64,000 nucleotides of DNA from an uncultured Verrucomicrobiae bacterium (GCA_963840305.1 CAWIYE010000003.1:134739-198738), one strand, 5' to 3'. Positions 1-47,556 are shown, counted from the first letter of the stretch. The notes: generated from the sequence alone by a model not told the origin. Program-made: numbers and translations.

Positions 1-1
1 A

Positions 2-193
2 ACCAATGACAGCATGCAGGTCCACGTCTATGGGCCGAGCCTGGCAACGGTGGTCGGCACATCGACGGAAAAGGGCAAAGACAAGAATGGGAAACAATTC
101 AGTCACTCTTTCGGCTGGGTCGATACCTGGATGGAGCGCAACGGAAAATGGGAGTGCATTGGCGAAGCCGTCACGCAGCTTAAGAAGAAGTAA
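2..193 (+). CDS. 3' fragment of an NTF2-fold (SnoaL-like/DUF4440-like) protein; the N-terminus lies left of the window
   Basis: The frame is open from the window edge to TAA at 191-193. It translates to ...FSHSFGWVDTWMERNGKWECIGEAVTQLKKK, a DUF4440/SnoaL-type C-terminus. It is absent from the ORF track because there is no in-window start. Confidence 0.45.
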   Translation, partial: TNDSMQVHVYGPSLATVVGTSTEKGKDKNGKQFSHSFGWVDTWMERNGKWECIGEAVTQLKKK

Positions 194-275
194 TCTGCTT
201 TTCGGTAACCCCCAGTGGTAACCGACGGCTATCGCGTCTATGGGCTGCTTTCCTGAGCTGCAGCCAACAGCTCTC

Positions 276-422
276 GATTTAGCTGACATATAGTTTACAG
301 AAATTTTTTGGCACGCTGTTGCCCCACTATAGAGGTTGCCATCTTGCAGCCTTTTTCGGCAAACTCCCCCTCTATGGAGGCAGAAATAGATTGCACGTTG
401 CAGTCTAATTCTAGTTCGATGG
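276..422 (+). repeat. Cassette-junction repeat E1 (attC-like, long form)
   Basis: Left box AGCTGAC at 281-287 within GATTTAGCTGACATATAG. Right box GTTCGAT at 414-420, 9 nt before the ATG at 430. It shares the ...CTCTATGGAGGCAGAAATAGATTGCACGTTGCAGTCTAATT module with E6 and E7. Confidence 0.6.
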
Positions 423-429
423 ATTCGAA

Positions 430-957
430 ATGACAGGGCTCGAGCTTGCTGACACCGCAGTAAAGATCGGGTTGGGTGCTCTGATTACAGGCGTCGCGAC
501 CTATCTTAACAGTAAACTGGGATTTAAACGCGACGCGGCGAAGACGTATTCCACGAGACGTCGCGAGTTGCTAGAAAACATAGGCGAGCAGATCGAAGGC
601 TTTACTCATGTCGTCCTTAAATTTTGGGCGCGTGCCAGTGGAATCGGCAAGACGCTGGAGAAGGGCGACACGATATCGCAGGAGCAATCAGATCGGTTCG
701 GCGCAACGGTCGACGAGCTATTCGATGCATTTAAGAATTTGTCGACAGCTGAAGCCCGTCTTCTTCTGCTAGGCGAAGATTTGGCGCAACAACGCGTGCG
801 AGAGTACGGAGAATTGATCCAGACATTGCAGGGTGCCATCGATGCGGCAGGTAGTTTCAGCGAGAGTGAGAGTAAAGAATGGCGATTGCGAATTCTCGCG
901 GCGCGGCAAGCAGTCTTTACCGAATTAAGCCGCGCCTATCGAACATTGAGCATCTAA
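430..957 (+). CDS. Hypothetical protein with an N-terminal TM helix (cassette ORF)
   Basis: 175-aa ORF starting 9 nt after the E1 right box. It has a hydrophobic N-terminus (IGLGALITGVATYL). No family was recognised. Confidence 0.5.
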   Translation: MTGLELADTAVKIGLGALITGVATYLNSKLGFKRDAAKTYSTRRRELLENIGEQIEGFTHVVLKFWARASGIGKTLEKGDTISQEQSDRFGATVDELFDAFKNLSTAEARLLLLGEDLAQQRVREYGELIQTLQGAIDAAGSFSESESKEWRLRILAARQAVFTELSRAYRTLSI

Positions 958-977
958 CTCGGCCACATAGCGACATC

Positions 978-1135
978 GCAAAGGGCAAGATCGGAAGCGG
1001 GGGAAAAAGAAACGCTTGGCAGACTCACGAGCCTAGGGACTCAGACATCTGCCAAGCGATAATAAGCTCCAATACCCTAGTTCGGAAATGGGCGCTCTAG
1101 CGCGCGTATCGGGGCAATCGGAGGCAACACCTCCC
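978..1135 (+). repeat. Non-coding module B, copy 1 (candidate structured RNA)
   Basis: About 158 bp, near-identical to 1872-2029. It contains the 9-bp inverted repeat CTTGGCAGA...TCTGCCAAG and a terminal hairpin AATCGGAGG-caacac-CCTCCCGATT followed by TTTT. Confidence 0.55.
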
Positions 1136-1244
1136 GATTTTGTCTGACATATAGTTTTTTACGGAAATTTTCGGGCGCGGGTTTTGCTGCCGCCAGGAAA
1201 TGGCCTTCCGGCCCGGAGCATCGCCCAGAATTTCAACATTAGGC
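1136..1244 (+). repeat. Cassette-junction repeat E2 (attC-like)
   Basis: Left box GTCTGAC at 1142-1148 and right box ATTAGGC at 1238-1244 (103 bp box to box). An internal imperfect palindrome pairs GAAATTTTCGGGCG (1164-1177) with CGCCCAGAATTTC (1222-1234), leaving one unpaired base. Confidence 0.6.
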
Positions 1245-1248
1245 GCGG

Positions 1249-1644
1249 TCACCCTTGGTAATCGTGGCCCAATTGCCTGGACCAACTCCGAGTGAAGAAG
1301 TCATTCATCTGCTCTTCCGGTGCCTGCGCGACGTGCTGCTGTGCACAGAGCTGCTGATACCGTCGATGTTCCCGTTCTCCGCCCACATACTCCACGCCGG
1401 CTTTCTCGTCTTTAAAAACGTAGAAGACTTTGCCCTTCATTGTGCCCCGCTCGAGTTTGTTACTTGGAAACGCCGCGTAGAGCTCCTTTTGCTTTGCGGT
1501 CTGTGGAGTGTGCACACGGAAGCCGGCTGCGGAGAGTAACGATGTGGTCTTATTTGTTTCCATGCTGGCGCAGCCGGCAAAGAAAATGATGCCGCAGGCG
1601 GCCAAGATGAGCATCAGGTGCGAGTTGGTTATTCTGGTTTTCAT
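1249..1644 (-). CDS. Putative lipoprotein (cassette ORF in reverse orientation)
   Basis: 131-aa ORF with a signal peptide and lipobox (IIFFAGC). Its stop lies 4 nt from the E2 right box. Confidence 0.6.
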   Translation of the reverse strand: MKTRITNSHLMLILAACGIIFFAGCASMETNKTTSLLSAAGFRVHTPQTAKQKELYAAFPSNKLERGTMKGKVFYVFKDEKAGVEYVGGEREHRRYQQLCAQQHVAQAPEEQMNDFFTRSWSRQLGHDYQG

Positions 1645-1796
1645 GGTTCGTTGCGTGTTGATTGGCTACGACTTGCAGTAAAGCGCGCGTCGACCGCTGG
1701 CGTCAATAATATCTTGAGTCTGTCACGAAAAACAATCACGCGCGGATTGAACGGAGATGAAAAGCAAGATCCGCAACGCCAGGTCGCGCGATTCGC

Positions 1797-1851
1797 GGAT
1801 TCAATCTGACATATACAGGTACTGATTTTGTCGGGCAGGGGATTTGCTAGA
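1797..1851 (+). repeat. Cassette-junction repeat E3 (attC-like, short form)
   Basis: Left box ATCTGAC at 1803-1809 and right box GCTAGAT at 1845-1851 (49 bp). The two boxes are complementary except for one G-T pair and one mismatch. Confidence 0.5.
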
Positions 1852-1871
1852 TGAGGGCCCCGTTTTCAAGA

Positions 1872-2029
1872 GCAAAGGGCAAGATTGGAAGCGGGGGAAA
1901 AAGAAACGCTTGGCAGACTCACGAGCCTAGGGACTCAGACATCTGCCAAGCGATAATAAGCTCCAACACCTTAGTTCGGAAATGGGTGCTCTAGCGCGTG
2001 TATCGGCGCAATCGGGGGCAACACCTCCC
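1872..2029 (+). repeat. Non-coding module B, copy 2 (ORF-less unit between E3 and E4)
   Basis: Near-identical to 978-1135. No credible ORF on either strand. Confidence 0.55.
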
Positions 2030-2133
2030 GATTTTGTCTGAGATATAGTTTTTTACGGAAATTTTTTGGCAGGATCTCTGCCCTAGAATTGCGTTGAGGT
2101 TCCTCCGTCGGTACGATCTAACTGTCGTTAGAT
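2030..2133 (+). repeat. Cassette-junction repeat E4 (attC-like)
   Basis: Left box GTCTGAG at 2036-2042 and right box GTTAGAT at 2127-2133 (canonical GTTRRRY), preceded by its exact complement ATCTAAC at 2116-2122. There is a central imperfect palindrome around GGCAG-gatct-CTGCC. Confidence 0.6.
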
Positions 2134-2138
2134 GAGAT

Positions 2139-3076
2139 TCAGTGTGCCTTCGCTGCTAATCTAATCCACTTGTTTGCCAGGGTGACCCCGACAAACCCGG
2201 AATCATGGCATTGTGTGTTCACCGATATGAAAGCTACGGGCGCGGTGGCGGAGTTGGGCGCAGCCGCGGTGTCGGTCCAAGCCTTGGCGTCGGTGTTGGC
2301 GATGCAGTCGGCGTAGTTAGGAGGTTCGCATAGATTCGGTAAACCTGATCCGGCGCTGAAGGGTCTAAGCCGCACGTGGCTCCCCTGCGGCTCCAACTCG
2401 TGCAAGCCCCGAAGAAACCACTGGGGTTCCGCCACACAGCAGGGTCAAGGTCGGTGACGGTTCGATTAGTCCAACCCCACTCCCCGCAGCACATCGCTGT
2501 CATGTTGGCTTGGATCTCGACCCAATATTTGCCGGGAAATAGGATCGCCTGCTGGCAAGGGGGGTTGTCGCATATATGTAGAGTGAAGGTGCTACCGTTC
2601 TGCGTCCACAACGCGAAAGTTGGCTAGACCTGGTTGCCGGGAAAGCCATCGTTGTCAGCATAAACGAAGACAGTGAAAGTGTGGGCAGGTCCTGGCCCAT
2701 TGAAGTACGCGCCGTCAACATCGATCCACCGCACCATCCAGGCGTAACCTTGCACAACAAAATCGTCTGCTAGATCGGAATTCATGGCAGAAGCGTCAGT
2801 GAAGGTGCTTGATAATGTCACAGCGGTTCCGGCGTTGTTGTACTGATCCCAGACTACTACCGCCGTCGCTGCGGCAACTGGCGAGGGCTGCGCCTCAGCG
2901 GATCCACTTGTCGCGTGTCCCACTGCGAATGAGCTCTTCGTGGGATCGATAGCGGAGTCAGTAGCGTTTTGCTGTCCGAGCGCGAGCCGGATCACGAACG
3001 CAGACAGGAGCAGAAGCAGGTAGAGCGTGCCTCGAACAACATGCGCCTTAGTCGACGGCGGATTTTGTTTTTTCAT
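2139..3076 (-). pseudogene. Secreted protein of unknown function, disrupted by an in-frame TAG and a probable frameshift
   Basis: N-terminal signal peptide (LYLLLLLSAFVIRLALG). ORFs 2624..3076 and 2234..2611 share one frame and are separated only by a TAG at 2624-2626. The plausible C-terminus continues in ORF 2139..2435 after a frame change near 2400. Confidence 0.5.
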
Positions 3077-3135
3077 AAACCGGCGTTTACGCGTGGCGAG
3101 GGTTCATTCTGATCAAACGCAGATCAAGATGTCGA

Positions 3136-3225
3136 GAGTTTTGTATGACATATAGTTTTTTACGGAAATTTTCGAGCACGCGTTCTGTCCGAGGATCGCG
3201 TTGACGGTTCGGGTTCTAACTAGAT
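3136..3225 (+). repeat. Cassette-junction repeat E5 (attC-like)
   Basis: Left box GTATGAC at 3143-3149 within TTTTGTATGACATATAGTTTTTTACGGAAATTTT. Right box ACTAGAT at 3219-3225. Confidence 0.55.
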
Positions 3226-3262
3226 GTTGTAAGCGCAGGGCGAGTGCGCTAAAACCGTCCGC

Positions 3263-3580
3263 ATGTCGAAGGTTATCCTTGGTTTGATCGCTGGTGTGGT
3301 ATTTGGCGCTCTCGATGTCGGTTTGATGCTGCCGATGTCCTTTCCCGATAAGACAGCGGCCCTGCTCGGCGCATTCACCAGCCGATTCGCCATCGGCTTC
3401 GTCATTGGCTGCGTGCAGTTGCCCTCCTGGCCCGGATGGTTAGTCGGGTTGCTATTCGGGTCACTCATTAGTCTTCCGGATGCCATTATCACCCACAAGT
3501 ATGTTCCAATTCTCGTGCTCGGTGGGATTGGCGGCCTCGTGATAGGCGGGCTAATTCATGGGTGGAAAGTCCACATCTAA
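3263..3580 (+). CDS. Small integral membrane protein (cassette ORF)
   Basis: 105-aa ORF, almost entirely hydrophobic and Gly-rich, consistent with 3-4 TM segments. Its stop lies about 20 nt before the E6 left box. Confidence 0.6.
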   Translation: MSKVILGLIAGVVFGALDVGLMLPMSFPDKTAALLGAFTSRFAIGFVIGCVQLPSWPGWLVGLLFGSLISLPDAIITHKYVPILVLGGIGGLVIGGLIHGWKVHI

Positions 3581-3591
3581 TCAGGTCGAGC

Positions 3592-3737
3592 AATTTTACA
3601 TGACATATATTTTTTACGGAAAATTTTGGGCGCGGGTTTTGCCACGAATCGCGGTTGACGCCCTGCAGCGTTTTCGGGCAAACTGCCTCTATGGAGGCAG
3701 AAATAGATTGCGCGTTGCAGTCTAATTCTCGTTAGGC
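3592..3737 (+). repeat. Cassette-junction repeat E6 (attC-like, full-length reference copy)
   Basis: Left box ACATGAC at 3598-3604 and right box GTTAGGC at 3731-3737 (canonical GTTRRRY), 140 bp apart. It contains the 7-bp hairpin CTGCCTC-tatg-GAGGCAG. Confidence 0.6.
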
Positions 3738-3793
3738 CTCATGCCTGCGCGGAAAACTTCAAGTTATGCTATCGAGCATCAATACTATCGCAG

Positions 3794-4181
3794 ATGTTGA
3801 ACACTCTACGCACGTTTAGGCGAACGCGACTACGAAGCAGTGATGTCGTATTTGGCTGACGACATTGTCTGGATCGTGGCTGACAATTCGCCGTTGGCGG
3901 ACCGCAGCCCTTATAACGGGATTGGTGAGGTGCGCTCAGGCGTGTTCGAACGTCTCACGGCGGGTTTCGACAAACTCGTCTTTGCCACGGACGAAATCTT
4001 TGAGTGCAAAGGCGGCGAGAAAGTCGTGGCTCTCGGCTACTATTACTTCAGGTTTCACGGGCAAGCTGAAGAACGCAAAGCACAGGTCGCCCACGTGTGG
4101 ACGATCCGCGACGGTCGGGCCGTTAAGTTCCAGCAATACCTCGATACGCTCCGGGTCGCAAGAGACGCGGGAGCGCTCTAA
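3794..4181 (+). CDS. SnoaL-like / NTF2-fold protein (cassette ORF); an N-terminal frameshift is likely
   Basis: ORF 3840..4181 plus in-frame upstream ...YARLGERDYEAV match the SnoaL-like N-terminal pattern. The only ATG (3794, MLNTL) is in another frame, implying a 1-nt indel near 3805. Confidence 0.6.
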
Positions 4182-4195
4182 GGCTCCGGGCCCTC

Positions 4196-4329
4196 GATTT
4201 TGTCTGACATATAGTTTTTTACCGAAATTTTTGGGCAAATTGTGGCCCGGAATTGCGGTTGAGCGTACTGCAGGGTTCCGCGGCAGACTGCCTGAGCTTG
4301 CAAGTTGCAGTCTAATTTATATTGAGGCC
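4196..4329 (+). repeat. Cassette-junction repeat E7 (attC-like, long form)
   Basis: Left box GTCTGAC at 4202-4208. The right end ATTGAGGCC at 4321-4329 lies 2 nt before the ATG at 4332. It shares the GAATTGCGGTTGAG...GTTGCAGTCTAATT module with E6. Confidence 0.6.
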
Positions 4330-4331
4330 TG

Positions 4332-4942
4332 ATGACGCTGCCCACGCCAGCAGTTTGGTCCGCAGTCGCCGCCTCATTATCTGCTGTATCAGCGTTCCTT
4401 ATGTGGCGGATTCAGCGGTGTAACTTCTTCGAGGCTTCACGTCCCGAACTAGTGTTAACTGGATGGCGAAGACAGCCCAACTTCGAAGGCGGTAGCTCTG
4501 ACGAGACAATTTTCTTCGACACTGTCCGAAACATTGGACAGGGAGCTGCAGTTGGTGTCTCGATAAAAGGAGACTTCCCGAAAATCCGGTGACTGCTGTA
4601 GCCTCAGGCGACAGCATTGATATCCTTGCTGCTGGCGAAGCAACAAAAGTCCAAGGCAGGGTGTCGCTGTGGTGGAAGAATGCACCTGCTGAGGGCGACT
4701 TAATACGGTTCAACATCTATCTGCGGTTCGAGGATGATCGCGGAATGCACTATGAGACTCGCTACGGGCTCTTCACCGGGAGGCTTGGCGTCGAAGTCGG
4801 ATGTTATCTGAAGAGATGGCCCCCGGGTTGCATTTGGGCGAACGCAGCACCAAAAGCATGCCGCTACGGCGGCGCAACCTATTCAAGCGTCTCCGACGGG
4901 TCCCGAACACGGTTCAAACGATTTTTTGCTCCCAATCGTTGA
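4332..4942 (+). CDS. Hypothetical membrane-anchored protein (cassette ORF) with a frameshift near 4590
   Basis: ORFs 4332..4592 (N-terminal TM helix) and 4589..4942 abut and read as one protein if a 1-nt indel is assumed. No family was recognised. Confidence 0.4.
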
Positions 4943-5074
4943 GGCGTGAACTGTTCCCCCTAGAGGAAAGGGGTTTGGGGGAAAACGTGGTTTCCCCCAA
5001 CTAAAAGCGCTTCTGTAGGCATTCGAGCGCGCCTCGAATTAGTGCGAAATTCGGACACAAAAATGAATCACGGC

Positions 5075-5092
5075 CTCGTCTGAGATATGTGT
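5075..5092 (+). repeat. Truncated junction repeat E8 (left box only)
   Basis: CGTCTGAGATATGTG contains GTCTGAG at 5078-5084, the same variant as in E4. The rest of the repeat is replaced by AT-rich DNA. Confidence 0.4.
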
Positions 5093-5110
5093 AAAAATAT
5101 AAATAAATAC

Positions 5111-5139
5111 TTGACAAATAGGTATTTATATGTTATAAT
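5111..5139 (+). promoter_or_regulatory. Consensus sigma70-type promoter overlapping an AT-rich hairpin
   Basis: TTGACA (5111-5116), an exact 17-nt spacer, then TATAAT (5134-5139), about 30 nt upstream of the GTG at 5168. The inverted repeat ATAAATAC/GTATTTAT brackets the -35 element. Confidence 0.6.
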
Positions 5140-5167
5140 TGTGCTATGACAATGGGTAATCGAGCTT

Positions 5168-5701
5168 GTGAGCCCCGAATCGGCAACGGAATGGCAGCTC
5201 AAGCTGATCGTGTGGGAATTTTTCTGCACGCTCACCTGGGAGTCGCGGGCGCGGAGCTGTGTGCGTAAGAGGCGGGAACATGTAACGCGCTGGCTACGTT
5301 ATTGGGCGCGAACGGTGCGCCCAGGGGTGAGCCATGCATTGGAGCAACTCGCGTATGTGATTCGTTGGGAGCGAGGCGAGATCGGCGGCTTGCCGCATTG
5401 TCACGTTTTGATTTCGCGATTTCCTTTGCGGTCGATTCACCAGAGCACGTGCTTTGCGATGATACATACCTGGAAGCATGGAATCGCACAGGTTCGTCTG
5501 TATGACCCTTACGGGCCGGGCGACGCCTGCAAATATCTTTCGAAGGGGCGTTTCTCGTCAGCGGCAGATTGCGAGGGCGCGAATACATACGAGCTGCGCA
5601 AGTTCAACCGGGCGGACTGGCTTTACATCAGTCCAGGCGCTTGGGCAGAAATGCGAGAAGCTCGAACGGTGGCCATGAGAATGTCGCCGCTTCTGTCGTA
5701 A
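5168..5701 (+). CDS. HUH-superfamily rolling-circle Rep-like endonuclease (small, no helicase domain)
   Basis: 177 aa with three RCR motifs in the canonical order: FFCTLTW (motif I), LPHCHVLI (HUH, motif II), ACKYLSKG (catalytic Tyr, motif III). Confidence 0.55.
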   Translation: MSPESATEWQLKLIVWEFFCTLTWESRARSCVRKRREHVTRWLRYWARTVRPGVSHALEQLAYVIRWERGEIGGLPHCHVLISRFPLRSIHQSTCFAMIHTWKHGIAQVRLYDPYGPGDACKYLSKGRFSSAADCEGANTYELRKFNRADWLYISPGAWAEMREARTVAMRMSPLLS

Positions 5702-5769
5702 ACCGATTATACGCGGAAGTGCTTTGGTCACCGCGAGGGTTCCCGGCGAGCGCAGCGAGCCGGGTTCCT

Positions 5770-6042
5770 CTAACTAGTCGCTTTGACCCGCAGGATTGAT
5801 TCGTGATTGGGCGGAGGCGGAACGAACGTCGTCGGTGGTATTACCTCACTGATCGTCCCTGGCTTGAATCGCCAATGCCGAATAGGCGCTCCGTCGGGAT
5901 ATTTGCTCACTTCCAGTTCGGCCTCAATATATCCGTCCTGCGGTTGGGGCTGAGGTTGTGGTGATCTGAGCATCCTAGATGCAGCGACGAACGAAGCCAG
6001 TGCAATCGCTACAACCAGAAGATTGTGGAGAACGGAACGCAT
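5770..6042 (-). CDS. Small secreted/membrane protein with a PQ repeat
   Basis: Likely start at MRSVLHNLLVVAIALASFVAAS (hydrophobic N-terminus), followed by PQPQPQPQ. No family was recognised. Confidence 0.35.
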   Translation of the reverse strand: MRSVLHNLLVVAIALASFVAASRMLRSPQPQPQPQDGYIEAELEVSKYPDGAPIRHWRFKPGTISEVIPPTTFVPPPPNHESILRVKATS

Positions 6043-6125
6043 TTCTAACCAATCACAAAGCTTAAGCCACGTCATCAAAAGGTGCAAGACGCGGGTCCGG
6101 GGCAATCGGAGGCAACACCGAGCGA

Positions 6126-6751
6126 TTATTCAGGAGGTTTCCTGAATGAGACGCCGAAGGCTCGACGCCATACTGAACGGCGAACATTTCTGTGATTTCG
6201 GAAAAACTCGATTCGCCCGAGCTTCATCGCCTGATCGACAGTGATGCCTTCTGGCAGGAACTCGCTAGCGTGCTTAAGGATGCGCTTTGCCGCATCAGGG
6301 TCAGGGTGATCAGGATGAAGGAGAAAAAACGCACGAAATGTACGCACGTACAGCGTGACGTTGCCAAAAATCCGCTCAAAGGCGGTCAGGGCATCAAAAA
6401 GAATCGGAGCGTTTGCGGACGGCAGAAGATACTAGGCCGGAATAAGGATTACTAGAAGCATGACGCAAAAAATCATAAGCGGTTGTAAAGATTTCCGATC
6501 CGATTTTAGACTGAAGACGCGGGCCTTTTCCAGATTTCTTTCCCAGTGCTTCGAGACACTGATAGAGCGGCCATGATAAGCAGGTGGATAGGCAAAGGGT
6601 CTTTCTCGAAAAACCAAAGCCAGATTGCGGTGTCTATCAGCCTAGCAACCGCGTCATAACGAGAAACTGTAATCACCTTACCAGTTGCGCGTGCGGCAAA
6701 GTGAGCTGGGCCTGGCGGTCCTACGGTTCTTCTTTTCTGGGTCTTACCCAC
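6126..6751 (-). pseudogene. Disrupted hypothetical gene (frameshift plus in-frame TAG)
   Basis: Minus-strand ORFs 6506..6751, 6432..6617 and 6126..6347 read as one protein. The frame of 6126..6347 stays open upstream to a TAG at 6432-6434. Confidence 0.35.
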
Positions 6752-6782
6752 GCGACCTTAAACAAGCTTGTTTTTGACAATG

Positions 6783-7213
6783 CTACTCGCGGCCTTCATG
6801 GGTGATGTAAAGCTCTGGTTCAACTCCCATCATTCCAAATCCAGGCAGTTGAATCAGGAGACGATCACGTAACACACCGCAATGATAATCGGCCATTCCT
6901 TCAGAAATGCCAATAGCGTGGGCGATCTGCGACAAGGTAAGGTCGTGGTCGAACAGAAGTCTCAGGACTTCTCGATCGAGTCCTCTGCCAAATCTCGTTT
7001 TGGACGAAGGCGCTCAAGTTCCAGTTCAAGTTCTTCCACCTTTTTCTCAAGGTTAGAAGTCTTCGCAATCAGATCGGATTTCTCGCCTTCGAGCGTGACA
7101 ATTTGCTTCGTAAGCAAATCGAGCTGCTTCTCTTGAAGATCAATTACATCTTTTTTGACTCCGGCATTTCTGAACGCTTGCATGATGCCGCCCGCGATCT
7201 CTTGCCAGTTCAT
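6783..7213 (-). CDS. Coiled-coil protein with a C-terminal winged-helix HTH (ArsR-like); frameshift near 6965
   Basis: ORF 6962..7213 is heptad-rich (EKKVEELELELERL). The next frame continues VLRLLFDHDLTLSQIAHAIGISEGMADYHCGVLRDRLLIQ to a TAG at 6783-6785. Confidence 0.5.
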
Positions 7214-7296
7214 TCCGAGTCAGTAGATCAAAACCAGAATGCCGATGGCAACCCAATAATTCGACAAGTATGCAACAAAATCGTATATGTAGATTC

Positions 7297-7722
7297 ATGG
7301 CAGACCGTGACGCTAACAAAGAGGCTCTCGATCAAGTCGAGCACGCTACCGAATCAGAGCCAGTCAAAGGCGATGATCTTGTTGGAATCGTCAGAGGACT
7401 CAAGCGTCAGTTACGCGAGGCTAAAGAGCGGCTTAACGCCGAAGCCAATTCGGCGAGCAGCCGGTCTAGCAGGCCGGAGAAATTCGTTTCCCGTTTCTTC
7501 GCTCGCTTCACGTTCTTTTCCGTGAGCGTGACAGTATACGGCGCTCTTGCCCATCTGGCTTTCGGCCAGCGCCTTTTCGTTTTCCCGCCTCTGTTGGTTC
7601 TTGCATTGAAAAAATATATATCTTTTCTATTGACTATACTGTTGAATCTATATATATTATTTCAAGTAGTCAACCAACATTTATGGCAAACAAAAGACTC
7701 TCCAAAGAAAAGCAGACTTTAG
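7297..7722 (+). CDS. Hypothetical protein; the 3' end is doubtful
   Basis: ORF starting MADRDANKEALDQVE lies divergent from 6783..7213. Its 3' part runs through the AT-rich promoter-like region at 7600-7680, so the true stop is uncertain. Confidence 0.25.
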   Translation: MADRDANKEALDQVEHATESEPVKGDDLVGIVRGLKRQLREAKERLNAEANSASSRSSRPEKFVSRFFARFTFFSVSVTVYGALAHLAFGQRLFVFPPLLVLALKKYISFLLTILLNLYILFQVVNQHLWQTKDSPKKSRL

Positions 7723-8555
7723 TTCTAATGGCGCTCTGCGAAGGGACGCCGATTCGCGCCGTGCGCTCGCATGTTCAAGACTAGGCAAGAACACGATTCA
7801 AGCGTGTCATTCGTGAAACCGGCGAAGCGTTCGCAGATTACATGGACAGAAACTTTCGTGATCTGCCGTGCATCCGAATCGAGATGGATGAACAATGGCA
7901 GTATGTCGGCGTCACGGAGGCAGACTTCCGATAAGACGACAAGACAGAGCGCGGCGATTTTTGGCTGTGGTGCTGCATCGACGCGGACACGAAACTGGTC
8001 TTTTCGCACAAGGTTGGAAAGCGTGATTGCTGGACGGGCAACACGTTTGTTGAGGATGTTCGCAATCGCGTGAGGCTTCCGGTTCAGATCGCAACCGACA
8101 ATCACAGGCCATACGCTTTTCACATTCGCCAACATTTCGGATATGAGGGCTACAGCTACGGAACCGAAACAAAGGTATTCGGCGAGCCGAAGCTGCCAGA
8201 CGGCACGCTGGCACGTCTCGGACGCAATGAAGGCGTCCGCAGGATGCAGACAGCGGAACGCGCGGCAGTGGTAGGCTCGCCGGACTTAGAAAGCCTTACC
8301 ACGAGCCACGTAGAGCGCGCGTTCCTGACCGTGCGGCAGGAATTGAAGCGATTTGAGCGCAAAGGACTTGGCTACAGCAAGAGCTTGGAAATGCACAAGC
8401 TGGCGGTCGCGCTGCATTTCGGCGTTTACAATTTCGTGCGGAAACATCACAGCGCTCGGAACTACGCCAGCGGTAGCCGCTGGCTTGAAGAAAAGCCGTG
8501 GAGTTTAGAACAGGTCGTGGAAATGACGGAAGCCTATTGCTCGCGACGAAAATGA
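7683..8555 (+). mobile_element. IS1/IS1595-like DDE transposase gene, inactivated
   Basis: A single frame from ATG 7683 to TGA 8553-8555 gives IEMDEQWQYVG..., DFWLWCCIDADTKLVFSHKVGKRD, QIATDNHRPY, TSHVERAFLTVRQELKRFERKGLGYSKSLEMH and YNFVRKH. It is interrupted by an in-frame TAG (7782-7784) and TAA (about 7935-7937), plus local compensating frameshifts near 8455. A TTGACT-17-TATATT promoter-like site lies at about 7640-7668. Confidence 0.7.
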
Positions 8556-8575
8556 ATCTGACCCAACACCACATC

Positions 8576-8625
8576 GATTTTATATGACATATATTGTCTG
8601 ATGTTATTGGCATGCGCCGTAGGCC
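8576..8625 (+). repeat. Junction repeat E9 (short, terminal copy)
   Basis: CAACACCACATCGATTTTATATGACATATAT matches the end of module B plus the left end of the E repeat. Left box ATATGAC at 8582-8588; right end CGTAGGC at 8618-8624. Confidence 0.5.
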
Positions 8626-8772
8626 TGTTGCCTGAGGCCCTTTCGAGTCCTTCCCCTGCATTGGTCCCCTGCTGCGGTCTTTTTTAAATTAGCGGTGGGA
8701 TTCGCCTAGTTGCGCTACCTTGACGTTCCTGCGGCCGGTGTTAGCGTCGCGAAATTTCGGTAACGTGTAGAT

Positions 8773-9289
8773 ATGATGAAGACTTTGCGCAGCGGTTCGA
8801 TTTCTTGTCTGATGATCGCCGCGCTTTTCATTCTTGGCTCCGCGAGACCGGCCTGGGCAGCTGACCAGGTCCTCTCCGGAAGCATTAAGGAAATGATGTC
8901 TCCGGAGGAATTTAAGGCGGCAGGCCTAAATAAGCTCTCGTCCGAAGAGCTGGAAAAGCTCAATGCCTGGTTGCAGGGATACCGGGAAACCACCGAGAAA
9001 GTCACCGAGAAAAAGACTGAAAAGAGGGTTGCTGCGATCCAATCATTCTTCCACCATGACCCGATCGTAAGCCGGGTCGATGGTTCGTTTGCCGGTCTTA
9101 AGGGCCACACAGTGATCAAGCTCGAAGACGGAACGACCTGGAAGCAAGCAAACCTAGACGACCACTGCGGGCCCGAGTCCGATCGACCATCCTGGAGCGG
9201 CAGTTGTGTGGGCGGGTTTGGGTTACAAGATGCGAATTCAAGGTGTGGCGGAATTCTATGTTAATCCGGTGAAAACGCCGCCTAAGTGA
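8773..9289 (+). CDS. Secreted protein of unknown function; C-terminal frameshift
   Basis: Signal peptide ending ARPAWA. After about 9180 a second frame gives a more plausible end ...VVWAGLGYKMRIQGVAEFYVNPVKTPPK, with TGA at 9287-9289. Confidence 0.5.
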
Positions 9290-9305
9290 TTTGCGTTAGT
9301 GTGAT

Positions 9306-10557
9306 TTACGTCAGCGGCTGCGTCGCAGCGGCGGCGGACATCAATCGAGCCAGACCGAACTCGCTGTGTATCAGGCGCGCTGCGCGCTCCGCATCCTTTT
9401 CGTCGATGACGACCGCGATCTTGATCTCGGAAGTGGAAACCAGTTGAATGTTGATCTCGCCGCGGCCCAGGCACTCGAACATTCGTGCCGCGACGCCGGA
9501 GTGCGATCGCATGCCGATACCGACCACGCTCAGCTTCGCCACTCCGCTTGACGTATTCAGGCGTTTCGCGCCGATCTCCCCGACTACGGGCATCAGGATT
9601 TTACGGGCGTTCTCCAGTTCGTCCTCGTGAATCGTGAATGAAACGTCGGTCGTTCCGCTGATCGACGCATTTTGCACAATCATGTCCACGACGATGTGCG
9701 CCGCGGCGACGTTGGAGAAAATTCGCCCCGCAATTCCTGGTTTGTCGGGCACGCCTGCGATGGTGAGTTTCGCCTGGTGACGATCGAGGCTGATCCCGCG
9801 AATCACCACATCCTCCATGCTGGCGCTCTCTTCTTTCGCGATTGTTCCCCTGCTCTTGTTGAAACTCGAGCGCACCTCGAATTCGACGCCGAACTTTTTG
9901 GCAAATTCTACGGCTCGCGACTGCATTACTTTTGCACCGCCACTGGCCATTTCGAGCAGTTCGTCGTAAGCGATCTCGTCGAGTTTCTTCGCCTCTTTTA
10001 CAATTCGGGGATCGCAGGTGAAAACTCCATCGACATCGGTGAAAATCTGACATGCGTCGGCATTCAACGCGCCCGCCAGGGCAATTGCCGTCAAGTCTGA
10101 GCCGCCGCGTCCCAGCGTGGTGGTTTCTCCTTCCGGAGTCTGCCCTTGAAATCCCGCGACGATCACGATGTAATCGTCCGATAGCAGTTCGTGAATTTGC
10201 TTCGGACTGATGTTGGCGATTCGCGCCCTGGCGTGGTTGCGGTCAGTTAAAATTCCGGCCTGCGCACCGGTCAGCGAAATGGCTCGTCCACCAAGTGCGT
10301 TCACCGCCATCGCGGTCAGAGCAGTGGCGGCATGTTCGCCAGTCGCTAGCAAAATATCGAGTTCGCGCTCGGTAGGATTCGGCGATATCTCGCGCGCGAG
10401 TTTGAGCAAGGTTGTCGGTCACGCCCGCCATCGCAGAGATGACCGCCACCACCTGACAGCCTTGACGTTGCGTTTCAACAAGCCGGCGTGCAACGCTCTG
10501 AATACGCTTCGGAGTGCCGACGGAAGTGCCGCCATATTTTTGAACTACCAGAGGCAT
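9306..10557 (-). CDS. lysC: Aspartate kinase
   Basis: N-terminus [14 protein letters not shown] (ORF 10243..10557) joins ORF 9306..10409, which carries the kinase core and C-terminal ACT-domain region. One frameshift near 10400. Confidence 0.85.
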
Positions 10558-10591
10558 GTCAGATGGAGCTTAATTCCGTGTTTTCATAACC

Positions 10592-10793
10592 GTCATTCCG
10601 AGCAGAGTCGAGGAATCCCGTTGCGATATCTTAAGCTTCAATCGCGGGATCCTTCGACTCCTCCCGCGACGGCGGGATCCGCTCAGGATGACCGCGTTTT
10701 CCGTTCGTTCGTTCGGGCTTGCACATTCCTTCGTCATTCGTCATTAGGATTTCGTCATTTTCAGCCATGTCTCGACTTCGCTCGACATGACAC
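10592..10793. repeat. REP cluster, family 1 (GTCATTCCGAGC...TCGAGGAATC / GATGTCTCGACT..GCTCGACATGAC)
   Basis: A forward copy at 10592-10619, an inverted partner at about 10643-10692, and a further unit at 10766-10793, all in the lysC-thrC gap. Confidence 0.7.
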
Positions 10794-10806
10794 GTGGTCG
10801 GACGCG

Positions 10807-11870
10807 CTACAGTCCAATTGCGCGTCGCACATCGTTCACCGTCGCGGCAACGGGTTTGAGTTTTTTCATGCGCTGAATAACTGCGTCGGGATCTTTCAAG
10901 CCGTGTCCTGTGACTGTGCAAATTATCCGACTCGTCTCGGGAATTTCTTGGAATGAGTACGCCGCTTCGCGTGAATCGCAGCATTTGAACAATCCGGCGA
11001 TCGCTGCCGCGCTGGCAGGTTCGACAAAAATTCCTTCATGCCGAGCCAGCCAACTCTGCGCTGCGACAATCTCTTCGTCGCTCACCACGTCGATTGCTCC
11101 GCGCGATTCGGTGATGGCCGCGCGCGCTTGTTTCCAGCTTGCCGGATTCCCGATTCGAATTGCGGACGCGATCGTTTCCGGTTTTTCGATGATTCGGTTA
11201 TGAAAAATCGGCGCTGCCCCAGCCGCCTGAAATCCAATCATCACCGGCAGTTTCGTCGAGTTTTCACGTGCGCGATACTCCCGATATCCCGCCCAATAGG
11301 CAGTGATGTTTCCGGCGTTGCCGACTGGCAGCAAATGAAAATCGGGCGCATCGCCCAATTCATCGACAATTTCAAACGCGGCGGTCTTCTGTCCTGCGAT
11401 TCGGTCCGGATTGATGGAATTTACAACGACGAAGTCGCCGCTCTCGCCGAGCTCGCGCACGATTCGCAGAGCATCATCAAAATTGCCGTCGATCGCTACG
11501 ATTTTTGCACCGTAAACGAAAGCTTGCAGTAATTTCCCCGTCGCAATTTTTCCCGCAGGCAGAATGACGACGCATGAAATCCCTGCCCGCGCCGCATAGG
11601 CAGCTGCCGACGCGGACGTATTTCCGGTTGACGCGCAGATGATCGCCTGTCGCGCCACGCTCCAGCGCCTTGGACACGGCCACGGTCATGCCGCGATCCT
11701 TGAATGAGCCTGTCGGATTGACCCCTTCGTTTTTGACAAAGACTTCACAGCCGCGGCCAACCCGATTGCTTAATTGCGGACAATGAATCAGCGGTGTGTT
11801 CCCCTCGCCCAAAGAGACAATCGGCGTCGAGGCAGAGAACTGGGAGAAATTCGCGGTAATGTTCGATCAC
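10807..11870 (-). CDS. thrC: Threonine synthase
   Basis: [19 protein letters not shown] (PLP-binding Lys motif) and [18 protein letters not shown]. The gene is split over ORFs 10807..11658 and 11477..11812, plus an upstream piece [11 protein letters not shown]. At least 2 frameshifts; the start is approximate. Confidence 0.85.
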
Positions 11871-11976
11871 TCCCCTACTCCGCTGTGATTTTGCTGTTGC
11901 CGAGTCCATCTAGATTTCTTATGCGAAGCAAATCCGCCCGATTGTCGATCTAAAAGCGCGATGTAAAGTCAACCGT

Positions 11977-13945
11977 ATGCCGGCCCTTAGCAAAGAAGAT
12001 AAGCTGCGGCTGTTGACCACGATGCTGGAGAGTCGCCATGCGGATTTGCGCGAGCAGAATCTGATTCGGCAGGGCAAGGGACATTTTCACGTTTCCGGAA
12101 TGGGTCACGAGGCGCTGGCGGCGGTCTCCGTTCCAAATGGAACCGGGCGATTACATCGTTTCTTATTATCGCGACCGCGGACTGGTGCTCGGGCGCGGCA
12201 TGACCACGCGGCAGCTTGGTCTCGAATATTTCGCCAAGAGAAATACCGGAAGCGGCGGGCGCCAGATGCCGTCGCATTACAGCAACGCGGACCTGCACAT
12301 CTGGAGTGTGCCGACGCCGACCGGTTCGCAGCTGCTCCCCGCCTGCGGCATCGCCTGGGGCATTCAGCTCGATGGCAAAAAAAATCTCGTTGTAACCACC
12401 GTCGGCGACGCCGCGACTCGGCAGGGAGATTTTTTTGAAGCGATCTGTTTCGCCAAAGAGAAAAAACTTGCCCGTGCTCTTTCTCGTCGAAGACAACGCG
12501 TACGGCATCAGCATGCCCACGCGCGAAGACTAATCCACTCGCGTTGAATGTTCTCGAGTCTGAAAACTGGCGACGGATCGATGGAGAAAACGTGCAACAG
12601 GTCTACGACGCGCAGCGGAAGCGTTCGAAAAGATTCGCGCCGGTGGCGGGCCGTTCTTTTTCTGGATCAAGATGGAACGGCTCTCCAGTCACACCAGTTC
12701 TGACGATCAGAAACTTTATCGCAGCGAGGAGGAACTGCGGGGACTCGGAAAAATTCGATCCGCTTAAATGCTGGAAGGATCAACTGATCGAGGAAGGCAT
12801 TATCAGTGCAGAGGAATTCGCGAAGCTCGACAACGAAATTAAGGAGCGCATTCGTCGCGAATACGCCGAAGCCGAAAAAGCCGAGGACCCCTCGCCTAAC
12901 GAGCTTCTCGCCAACGTCAGCAAACCGCTGCCAAAGATCGACAAGGAAATTCTGCCGCCCGGGAAAATATCGGATTGGCGATACCGTGAACAAGACCTTG
13001 CGCGCGGGTTTAGAGGAAGATCCGCGACGAATTCTTTTCGGCGAAGACATCGAAGATCCAAAGGGCGGCGTGTTCCGTCTCACACAGAAACTTTCGACCG
13101 AGTTTCCGAAGCAGGTCTTCAATTCGCCGCTTGCTGAATCGACGATTCTCGGAGTCGCCTGCGGCCTGGCTGCGTACGGAAAGCGCCCAGTGTTCGAGGT
13201 GCAATTCATCGATTTCATTTATCCCGGATTCAATCAACTCGTTACCAACATCTCGAATTTGCGGTGGCGATCATTCGGCAACTGGAAATGTCCAGCCGTC
13301 ATTTATGCGCCTTATGGTGCGTACCTCCCCGGCGGCAGTTTGTGGCATAGCCAGGCGAATGAATCGGCGCTCGCACATTATCCCGGACTGAACGTCGTCA
13401 TTCCCAGCACGCCAGCAGACGCCGCAGGATTGCTTTGGACTGCGATGCACGGTGAGGACCCGGTGATTTTCTTAATTCCAAAGCATTTGCTCTGGGCCGA
13501 ACACGAATATGCAGAGCCAATCCGGGCCGTTCCGTTTGGGCGTGCGCGTCGATGCACAAACGGCTCCGATGTGACGGTGGTCGCCTGGGGAAATACGATC
13601 GAAAAATCTCTCGAAGCGATTGCGAAGATCGACAATGAAATCAGCGTCGAGTTGATTGACCTGCGATCGATCGTTCCGTGGGACAAGGCCGCAATCGAAG
13701 ATTCAGTGCACAAGACTAGACGACTCGTTGTGGTGCAGGAAGACACCGAGAACTGCAGCGTCGGGCAAATGATTATTTCCCACATCTCGAGCACGCCTGA
13801 ACTCTGGAATCGAACTGATCAGTCCGCCGATTCTCGTCAGCAAAGCCAACGTGATGATCGGCTACAATCCGATCTACGAATACGCGGCGTTGCCGGACGT
13901 AGAACGCATCGTCGCTGCGATCAGGCGTTCAGTTGCAACCAAACA
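11977..13945 (+). CDS. 2-oxoacid (branched-chain/pyruvate-type) dehydrogenase E1 component, fused alpha-beta subunits
   Basis: The alpha part spans ORFs 11977.., 12137.. and 12544.. (YRDRG..., [27 protein letters not shown] in a shifted frame). The beta part is ORF 12806..13975 ([34 protein letters not shown]). The two are joined by a linker with no stop. At least 4 frameshifts. Confidence 0.8.
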
Positions 13946-14066
13946 TGCACGCGCAGTTGTAGCCGCGGGCGCTGACCGCGGCCGTCCGGTGCCAGAACCA
14001 GAGTTCGCCCGGCCGGGATCAACGCCCCCGGCTACAGCGGATACGGGCCAACGTCGCAGCGAAAGC

Positions 14067-15098
14067 ATTACGGTGCCAGTCATGGGCGAAGGAATTCGCA
14101 ACGCGAAAATTGTTTCGCTTTTGAAAAAGACGGGCGATCCCGTCGCGCTGGATGACGAATTGTGCGAAGTGGAAACCGACAAAGCGGTTTATCCGATCCA
14201 ATCATCGTTCGCTGGAGTCATGGGCGAATGGAAAACGAAAGTCGGCGACACGGTCGAGATCGGTCAGCAACTTGGCACACTTCTCACCGACGAAGCGTCG
14301 CTTGCAGATCAGTTTCAACGGGCTGCTGAAACTTCGCCACATCGCGAAGCTGTAGCCGCGGACGCTGACCGCGGCGTCGCCTTGCCGAACCGCGAGGCAA
14401 GGTCACCGACCTGGGTTACAGGAATCGAGCCGGCGCTTTCGTCTACGATCACGCGCAAGCTCAGCCAAGTTATTCCGGCCAACCTGCAAATCGATGCGCG
14501 CTGGGACGCGATTCGGGAAGCGCGCGAGGCAGCAAAAAAGAAAGATCCGAAGCATGCTCCCTCCCCTTCCGTCATGATCGCGTGGTCAGTGGTGCGCGCG
14601 ATGGAAAAACATGCGCCTTTCCGACGACTGATTCTCGAAGACGATCAGATTGTACAGAATGACGATTTCGATCTTGGCGTTGCGGTTGCGCTCGAGGGCG
14701 ATCGCCTGGCAACCGCGGTAATCACAAATGCAAATAAAAAAAGCTGGCCGGAATTCGTAAAGATTTACGACGAGGCCGTTGCTGCTACTCGCAGCGGTCG
14801 CGTTGATGCTATGAATGCTCCAGTGGTAATCACGAGTCTCGGTGCGTTTGGAGTCAAAGCTGGCGCGCCGATTGTCGTACCGCCATCAGTCGGCACGCTT
14901 TTCGTCGGCACTGCGCATCACGAATTAATTCCTAACAAAAACAAAAACGAAAGTGCAGAGGTAATTACACTCTCACTCACATTCGATCATCGGGTCGTAA
15001 ACGGCGCCGGCGCAGCGGCCTTTGCCAACGAAATCAAAGAACAAATCGAAGGATTTAAAATCCCGAAGCCAGATAAACCTGCCACCGCGTCAGCGTGA
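14067..15098 (+). CDS. Dihydrolipoamide acyltransferase (E2); the start is unresolved
   Basis: Lipoyl domain (ITVPVMGEGIRNAKIV...CEVETDKAVYPI) and catalytic domain with FDHRVVNGAGAAAF. There is no in-frame stop or ATG between the E1-beta tail (from 13851) and the lipoyl domain. Confidence 0.75.
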   Translation: MTVPVMGEGIRNAKIVSLLKKTGDPVALDDELCEVETDKAVYPIQSSFAGVMGEWKTKVGDTVEIGQQLGTLLTDEASLADQFQRAAETSPHREAVAADADRGVALPNREARSPTWVTGIEPALSSTITRKLSQVIPANLQIDARWDAIREAREAAKKKDPKHAPSPSVMIAWSVVRAMEKHAPFRRLILEDDQIVQNDDFDLGVAVALEGDRLATAVITNANKKSWPEFVKIYDEAVAATRSGRVDAMNAPVVITSLGAFGVKAGAPIVVPPSVGTLFVGTAHHELIPNKNKNESAEVITLSLTFDHRVVNGAGAAAFANEIKEQIEGFKIPKPDKPATASA

Positions 15099-42636: not shown

Positions 42637-44096
<1,460 letters not shown>

Positions 44097-47482: not shown

Positions 47483-47556
47483 CGGGCTGTAGTTCAGCTT
47501 GGTAGAACGCTTGAATGGGGTTCAAGAGGTCGTGGGTTCAAATCCCGCCAGCCCGA
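47483..47556 (+). tRNA. tRNA-Pro (anticodon GGG), no encoded CCA
   Basis: Manual cloverleaf: acceptor CGGGCTG/CAGCCCG, D arm GTTC-AGCTTGGTA-GAAC, anticodon arm CTTGA-ATGGGGT-TCAAG, T arm GTGGG-TTCAAAT-CCCGC. Confidence 0.85.

Follow-up and report, generated by a model that had tools for sequence, protein, structure and literature searches.

An integron-type cassette array bounded by composite repeats in Candidatus Udaeobacter-like soil Verrucomicrobia

The 64,000-nucleotide stretch of DNA analyzed here (the window; GCA_963840305.1, CAWIYE010000003.1:134739-198738, from an uncultured Verrucomicrobiae bacterium) begins with an array of small gene units separated by copies of a composite repeat. 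The repeat has a left-end site, designated S1, with the core TGACATATA, a body, and a right-end site, designated S2, that carries a box of the integron type GTTRRRY. The array is real, widespread, and actively shuffled, and is integron-type, resembling attC clusters that have no integron-integrase (CALINs); its boundary repeat is a new composite variant, and on the chromosome the array has tlyA-nadK to one side and lysC to the other. Related loci are referred to by L numbers.

The window edge cuts the first cassette, of which the 3′ end remains (1-275, +) with an open-reading frame (ORF) at 14-193 for a DUF4440/NTF2-like protein. Repeat E1 (276-422, +) is a long form with its S1 core TGACATATA at 284-292, body hairpins, and S2, GTCTAATTCTAGTTCGAT, extending to 422 with the right end GTTCGAT (416-422). 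The cassette at 423-1135 (+) contains ORF 430-957 (175 aa, no Pfam match) and a 160-nt segment, 978-1135, and is followed by repeat E2 (1136-1244, +), a short form with S1 at 1145-1153, an imperfect hairpin at 1164-1234, and the right end ATTAGGC (1238-1244). A cassette with a reverse lipoprotein ORF at 1249-1644 (lipobox, from translation) occupies 1245-1797 (-) and has 88% identical copies in L029. Repeat E3 (1798-1851, +) is a variant short form, in which TGACATATA is followed by CAGGTACTGATTTTGTC, with the right end GCTAGAT (1845-1851); the same variant occurs in L032 at 6201-6363. The ORF-less unit at 1852-2029 (+) is a 95% copy of 978-1135 with the hairpin GGGGGCAACACCTCC and a T tract at its end, and is bounded by repeat E4 (2030-2133, +), a short form with S1 TGAGATATA at 2039-2047, a hairpin, and ATCTAAC-TGTC-GTTAGAT at 2116-2133, where inverse core and core (GTTAGAT, 2127-2133) are 4 nt apart.

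The cassette at 2134-3136 (-), an 89% copy of which is found in L025, carries a reverse, frameshifted secreted-protein gene (2139-3076, -; ~310 aa) spread over three frames as ORF pieces at 2139-2435, 2234-2611, and 2624-3076 (98, 125, and 150 aa); it is probably a decaying cassette gene. Repeat E5 (3137-3225, +), a short form with the right end TTCTAACTAGAT (ACTAGAT, 3219-3225), precedes a cassette at 3226-3591 (+) with a small membrane protein ORF at 3263-3580 (hydrophobic, 105 aa, from translation), and repeat E6 (3592-3737, +) is a long form near the family consensus with S1 at 3601-3609 and S2, GTCTAATTCTCGTTAGGC, at 3720-3737 (GTTAGGC, 3731-3737); E5, this cassette, and E6 together are 87% identical to L021. 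The cassette at 3738-4195 (+) encodes a SnoaL_2 protein (3794/3840-4181) and ends at repeat E7 (4196-4329, +), a long form with the degenerate right end ATTGAGGC. A long composite last unit (4330-8575, +) holds ORFs 4332-4592 and 4589-4942, a Rep-gene unit at 5088-5701, small ORFs, and a stop-interrupted IS1-like DDE gene at 7683-8555. The array closes with a terminal site, GATTTTATATGACATATATTGTCTGATGTT (8576-8605, +), in which the S1 left half is fused to 12 conserved nucleotides.

A preliminary description made from the window alone (the sequence-only reading) had listed nine copies of one repeat family, E1 to E9. Copies E1, E2, E4, E5, E6, and E7 were recovered by both a sequence pattern and a left-end profile; a 27-nt pattern gave 4 matches in the window against 0.0 expected from shuffles, and a looser 15-mer gave 10 against 1.0, of which 8 were E1-E7 and E9, all on the + strand. 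In E3 and E9, the common part is limited to the GATT..TGACATATA core. The family therefore stands for these eight and not for E8 (5075-5092), which neither the pattern, even allowing up to 2 mismatches, nor the profile recovered; its counterpart in L024, TTTTAGATAG, is part of the left end of the Rep-gene unit. Copies share the left end (C)GATTTTnnnTGACATATAGTTTTTTACGGAAATTTT, include an invariant TATAGT in S1, and range in length from 50 to 150 bp. The uniform orientation held throughout, the listed right-end boxes read exactly as given, and so did the distances from boxes to ORFs (starts 2-56 nt after a box, reverse stops 4-5 nt after). Central palindromes had been described in E2 and E4, and were found by an inverted-repeat search and as a central hairpin in the fold, respectively. 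The cassette-type cargo was likewise recognized, namely SnoaL_2 (3840-4181), the DUF4440 match (14-193, E=6e-4, below the Pfam cut-off), the lipobox, and the hydrophobic protein. Partition of the first 8.6 kb into small units applies to the cassettes and fails for 4330-8575, which is a single long unit.

Pattern scans found no further copy at 8.7-64 kb apart from one chance-level near-match on the minus strand. When one genome of each species was scanned for the exact pattern, 34 loci were returned, nearly all from soil metagenome-assembled genomes of Verrucomicrobiae/Candidatus Udaeobacter, and a metagenome scan returned at least 120 soil contigs with the repeat. Co-oriented repeat arrays are present in >150 Verrucomicrobiae/Udaeobacter contigs. 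Of 152 related loci, 150 have all their copies on one strand; the copies number 395, with a median spacing of 687 nt. The housekeeping pair tlyA-nadK is located upstream of the array in twelve loci. The terminal 30-mer is identical in the window and in L001, L002, L003, L013, L019, L021, and L034, with the same flank after it; in the window this flank (8773-10409) consists of an unknown ORF (8773-9264) and aspartokinase (9306-10409, -), followed by a PLP (pyridoxal phosphate) enzyme, 2-oxoacid dehydrogenase, Der, MoxR, and BatA. One 531-kb contig contains a complete array, measuring 10 kb from nadK to the terminal site, and a 1.17-Mb contig has a single locus with the exact pattern. As the 55-kb flank is free of copies and genome matches are clustered and co-oriented, the repeat belongs to a single chromosomal locus and is not scattered genome-wide in the manner of repetitive extragenic palindromes (REPs) or miniature inverted-repeat transposable elements (MITEs). 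Comparison of the window with related loci by BLAST showed that content differs between genomes, as anticipated for cassette shuffling; the SnoaL unit (3726-4195), for example, occurs in six other loci with differing neighborhoods.

The two exceptions to the single-strand rule include L120 (1-6864), whose apparent divergent arrays are two mirror-image half-arrays around duplicated IS110-family and TonB_C-like genes, probably an inverted-duplication assembly artefact. In L120, the end of the IS110-type gene adjoins an S1 copy, and the same end sequence is found in L135 ~100 nt downstream of its S1. Locus L016 (CAVXSV010000017.1), binned as Alphaproteobacteria, carries Udaeobacter-type repeats together with an integrase, a truncated inverted second integrase copy, and a helix-turn-helix gene, and represents either misbinning or a piece of the array transferred on an integrative element.

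Exchange at S1 was analyzed by anchoring every copy on TGACATAT and comparing the flanks pairwise. Pairs with an identifiable homologous flank matched on the left only (111), on the right only (206), or on both sides (18). In the left-only pairs, identity was 0.82-0.99 through position -1, including the variable triplet before TGAC, and reached background by +9/+16, though the block is conserved to +26. These alignments place the exchange inside TGACATATA(G) and confine it to about 10 bp, too sharp for homologous recombination over the 36-bp block. The S1 left core is a second crossover point, used as much as S2, that the sequence-only reading had not expected.

Exchange at S2 was analyzed by anchoring on GTTRRRY and listing distinct junctions. 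One downstream cassette could be preceded by unrelated sequences up to GTT, either differing repeat bodies or a textbook attC; in an aligned case, L008 reads ...CATGTCAAAC|GTTAGGCAAAAAAC (textbook attC) and L085 reads ...GTCTAATTCTC|GTTAGGCAAAAAAC (repeat). Downstream homology begins at GTT whichever body or attC precedes it, in agreement with the proposal of a right box that works as a GTTRRRY core. Judged from such junctions, in which G|TT is indistinguishable from |GTT, exchange exactly at GTT is a well-supported integron-type crossover that also involves the textbook attCs of sister arrays. A canonical GTTRRRY end was present in 124 of 180 long copies, and the S2 consensus, GTCTAAT-TCTA-GTTAGRC, has an inverse-core-like box 4 nt before the GTTRRRY core. 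The terminal site, an S1 half-copy fused to TTGTCTGATGTT, is the fixed end of the array, a conserved feature that the sequence-only reading likewise did not anticipate. Among ~155 oriented sequences, no S1/S2 hybrid junction of either kind was found, and S1 x S2 recombination was rejected.

Textbook attCs were searched for with a covariance model, R1, built from 11 attC sites of three class-1 arrays with R and L helices and narrower than the model of IntegronFinder. As a control, it recovered from another plasmid, the fourth (L161), the attCs of qacG2 and blaIMP-4, which were not in the training set, at 36 and 22 bits. Within the related arrays, R1 identified 28 textbook attCs (22-40 bits; e.g., GCCTAACCTTTCGTTGCACC...GGTGAACTCAAACGTTAGAT), of which 26 point the same way as the repeat closest to them. 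In cassettes with a textbook attC, the ORF moves with its attC and homology ends at R′, which is the usual behavior of integrons. Two matches are about 250 nt apart in L131, and matches are scattered elsewhere. In L013 (oriented 1476-1655) and L021 (oriented 929-1064), a complete repeat lies 33-54 nt beyond a textbook attC, an arrangement that forms an ORF-less unit of ~200 nt between two GTTRRRY cores. Across 209 units, the median length was 718 nt and the median ORF 154 aa; the longest ORF was co-oriented with the repeats in 154 and opposite in 52. Cargo across the arrays includes SnoaL, GNAT, and glyoxalase proteins as well as unknowns. Integrons have been reported in Verrucomicrobia (PMC4889954), and a literature search for Udaeobacter arrays found nothing.

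The repeat itself differs from these sites. In minimum free energy folds, nine class-1 attCs had 11-20 end-to-end pairs, whereas 112 long repeats averaged 0.5-0.9, and fold energies were -0.19 to -0.36 kcal/nt for the former and -0.12 kcal/nt for the latter. An inverted-repeat search found no inverted repeat joining the repeat ends. Hairpins are visible in the 150-nt consensus with covariation within the column-shuffle range; pairing in hairpins H1-H3, the S2 mini-hairpin, and a GGCAAAC/GTTAGGC R-box was no better than in column shuffles, and an RNAalifold consensus of 56 long copies contained no structure, results that are neutral on structure either way. The left RYYTGAC box had been proposed as R″, a role that we reject since its variable triplet has neither complementarity to nor covariation with the right-box RRY, whether the two boxes compared belong to one element or to one cassette. 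The attC-like fold that had been suggested for the repeats was likewise not borne out, the ends being unpaired in comparison with strongly paired class-1 controls and R1 scoring nothing in positions 1-15000. By structure, the repeat is therefore no folded attC hairpin, and only its right end is integron-like. At the gathering threshold, Rfam 15 matched only two tRNA genes in the window (42637-42708 and 47483-47556; 71 and 65 bits), unrelated to the array, and gave no match with E<=1 in 1-9000.

Several features of the array units recur. The segment of 199 nt at 978-1176 is duplicated at 1872-2070 (95%) and is 99% identical in L025; it terminates in a terminator-like hairpin, GGAGGCAACACCTCC, followed by the S1 T tract, and a third partial copy without S1 is located at 6098-6127. 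The compact Rep unit (5088-5701) has a perfect sigma-70-like promoter, TTGACA-17-TATAAT, at 5111-5139 and encodes a HUH protein of 177 aa that belongs to Pfam REP_ORF2-G2P, a rolling-circle Rep of the inovirus G2P type. This gene, in every case oriented like the repeats, is also found in L024, L060, L109, and L133 and as a fragment in L050. The IS1-like DDE gene directly precedes the terminal site and, stop-broken in the window, is intact at 294 aa in L162 (19427-20311). Its 3′ tail, AATC(T/G)GACCCAACACC, adjoins the terminal site in the window and in three loci, L034, L003, and L002 (more divergent in the last), and adjoins ordinary S1 copies in five other loci; the gene may be a recurrent cassette or an insertion sequence (IS) preferring S1. 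Just upstream of it, 7592-7679 contains an AT-rich 30-nt inverted repeat (77% complementary) and promoter-like sites on both strands.

Two candidates for the recombinase of the array were considered and rejected. Integrases of 391-392 aa in L016 and L135/L139 are phage-type and far below the NCBIfam IntI and Xer cut-offs; those of L016 and L135, which form one family, each have an S1 copy no more than about 1.2 kb away. Against this family as the cognate enzyme stand three other genomic contexts in which it has no S1 copy. The L135 integrase (7264-8553; compare L155-L157) is a 392-aa tyrosine integrase with >2000 soil relatives, the best 120 of which are 81-94% identical and one of which is named Candidatus Udaeobacter; integrases of this type are located where housekeeping genes border on series of small unknown ORFs, and L156 has an attC-like match at 5887-6030 (27.5 bits) about 4 kb upstream. 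The HUH Rep gene (5168-5701) was dismissed as the array enzyme, being a recurrent unit (the window and five loci) with no fixed position.

Taken together, these results make it probable that 1-8605 is the distal part of a sedentary chromosomal integron-type cassette array of a Candidatus Udaeobacter-like Verrucomicrobium, with composite repeats and an IntI-type enzyme acting in trans. Under this reading, single-gene or ORF-less units would be separated by co-oriented composite repeats, specific to the lineage, that stand in the place of attC. Since there is no recombinase in view, we infer action in trans: a tyrosine recombinase encoded elsewhere in the genome would act at S2, for which an IntI-type enzyme is an economical guess, and it would probably treat S2 as an attI-like double-stranded "simple site", or else pair S2 with attC-bearing circles. 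S1 may depend on this enzyme too, through a secondary GTT site, or on a different site-specific recombinase.

A number of results weigh against this reading. In agreement with the sequence-only reading, tblastn with IntI1 (a query 100% identical to plasmid records), XerD, and the L016 integrase found no integrase across the 64-kb window; the 154 loci fetched by the repeat pattern contained no intI, only the phage-type integrases of L016 and L135/L139; and the 10 kb upstream of nadK on two contigs contained housekeeping genes and no intI. Window positions 1-15000 have no textbook attC by model R1 with filters off, the best score (9.6 bits, E=1.2) being the ATCTAAC-4-GTTAGAT of E4 and nothing more, and the structural attributes of attC, end-to-end pairing and covariation, are absent from the repeat. 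In comparisons of internal with terminal copies, the S1 crossover falls left of the G of GTT, which misfits the canonical G|TT rule. We know of no instance in which IntI excises cassettes flanked by such sites.

An unlikely alternative, though the strongest rival, is that S1 and the body form a small mobile insertion, MITE-like or derived from an element of the IS1111-attC or group IIC-attC type, that colonized the attCs of an ordinary integron array; the flanking sequences would then be attC halves, S2 the surviving L′-R′ side, and exchange at S1 the element's own recombination. About 8% of copies do have a canonical attC left half (RYYYAAC and an L″-like box) 10-45 nt upstream of S1 (e.g., GTTAGATCTAACAATGCAGCC...GATTTTGGCTGAC), while the other 92% have none that is recognizable and often no room for one, the SnoaL stop being 14 nt from S1. 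In L004/L130, an ORF that elsewhere has an intact attC carries GGCTAACCCTTCCA... followed by S1, some repeat bodies terminate in a clear attC right half (GGTGGCTCAG-TTCTTTTTC-GTTAGG in L009/L032), the repeat can follow a complete attC as an ORF-less unit after 33-54 nt, and an IS110-family gene is present in one array. Against such an insertion, the repeat has no associated transposase or intron RNA and no Rfam match, and no pair of empty and filled sites was found.

A still smaller probability attaches to an array of non-IntI type, in which a tyrosine recombinase of housekeeping or island origin (Xer-like, as with IMEX elements at dif, or the abundant L135-type Udaeobacter integrase) would insert circles at the conserved palindromic terminal site and regenerate the site each time. 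This would suit the identity of the terminal site over 30 nt in 8 genomes despite diverging flanks, its palindrome ATATGACA-TATAT-TGTCTGAT, the recurrence of the inovirus G2P-type rolling-circle Rep gene, and the closeness of one integrase family to S1 in L016 and L135, and it would share the lack of an adjacent recombinase with dif. The work in 10.1101/2021.09.12.459815 offers a precedent, a dif site found via mobile-element integration in Legionellales. It would leave the GTTRRRY junctions and the co-oriented textbook attCs unexplained, however; there is no likeness to the conserved XerD arm of dif, L135-type integrases lack a nearby S1 in the three other contexts, and GC skew has no switch at 8.6 kb over the 64 kb, a span too short to decide on the terminus. 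Most improbable of all, in our judgment, is an intergenic element that is REP/MITE-like or regulatory (a promoter, terminator, or leader) and belongs to a hypervariable island, with shuffling by homologous recombination between its copies. The invariant TATAGT, the short distance of 2-56 nt from repeat to ORF start, the frequent movement of the upstream body with the downstream ORF, and the hairpin-plus-T-tract motifs that adjoin S1 in E2 and E4 are what such an element might display. Yet a scan for sigma-70 promoters and terminators remained at shuffle level with nothing recurrent at S1, a quarter of ORFs are oppositely oriented, the repeat is not dispersed (none in the 55-kb flank, one exact-pattern locus in the 1.17-Mb contig), and crossovers, instead of ranging across the conserved block, fall within ~10 bp at S1 and at the GTT of S2.

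If, as in the integron-type reading with an enzyme in trans, the repeat is a working site, the range of sites usable by an integron-type recombinase widens, S1 and the fixed terminal site are without counterpart in described integrons, and a large hidden pool of cassette genes exists in Candidatus Udaeobacter, a dominant soil lineage. Because the repeat keeps only the GTTRRRY core, such arrays would be largely missed by attC-hairpin surveys, or seen as a few stray attCs, and standard integron tools would probably miss the repeat. With their well-delimited sites, numerous natural recombinants, and textbook attCs alongside the repeats, the arrays provide a test bed that bears on the origin of cassettes and of their sites. 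More tentatively, and with the odds against it, the repeat may constitute a new class of double-stranded recombination site, combining an attI-like GTTRRRY with the palindromic TGACATAT and a conserved terminal "docking" copy, and served by one or two recombinases in trans. This would amount to a second route to integron-like gene libraries, in a highly abundant soil lineage and invisible to attC-model surveys.

Several known systems share parts of this organization. The arrays of integrative mobile elements exploiting Xer (IMEX) at dif, such as CTX/TLC/RS1 in Vibrio, are alike in having co-oriented hybrid sites that flank stacked elements, a recombinase encoded elsewhere, a conserved site regenerated at one end, and filamentous-phage-type Rep genes, but the units described here are single genes and not phages, and integron-type GTT junctions are present. 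A dif site is 28-31 bp long, has conserved Xer arms, and lies at the replication terminus; no dif consensus was found here, nor any match to that of the XerD arm, TTATGTTAAAT. With regard to the xerS-difSL module (PMC5357621), there is a partial match between the right arm of S1 (reverse complement TTTCCGTAAAA) and the left arm of difSL, TTTCCGAAAA. We regard the likeness of S1 and the terminal site to dif/difSL as a lead only.

Insertion sequences of the IS1111-attC group and group IIC-attC introns are elements that target attC, and one example of an attC-targeting element was seen in L161. The present array is similar in that such elements lie in attC sites in one orientation and attC halves flank a minority of repeat copies; it differs in that the repeat has no transposase, intron RNA, or Rfam match, and most copies have no attC left half. 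The simple site of attI1 consists of adjacent L and R boxes, CCTAAAAC-AAA-GTTAGGC, and is recombined as double-stranded DNA. S2 matches this layout with an inverse-core-like box, 4 nt, and GTTAGRC, and a crossover at GTT, a likeness of sequence only; unlike attI, which occurs once per integron and beside intI, S2 is present at nearly every boundary with no intI adjacent.

CALINs are clusters of attC sites without an integrase, recognized by IntegronFinder as at least two attC sites within 4 kb with no intI nearby (PMC4889954). In contrast to integrons and CALINs, ~93% of the detected boundaries (395 repeats against 28 attCs) lack the imperfect palindrome, the hairpin fold, and a score with the attC model, and the array has an additional crossover point where the repeat begins on its left and is closed by a fixed, conserved terminal site. 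In other respects, the array is like sedentary chromosomal integrons and CALINs, with co-oriented repeats between small, mostly co-oriented ORFs of mostly unknown function and, as in most CALINs, no neighboring intI. It resembles chromosomal integrons in that the repeats are homogeneous within the lineage, as are the Vibrio cholerae repeats, and shares with integrons both the exchange at GTTRRRY and the textbook attCs interspersed among the repeats.

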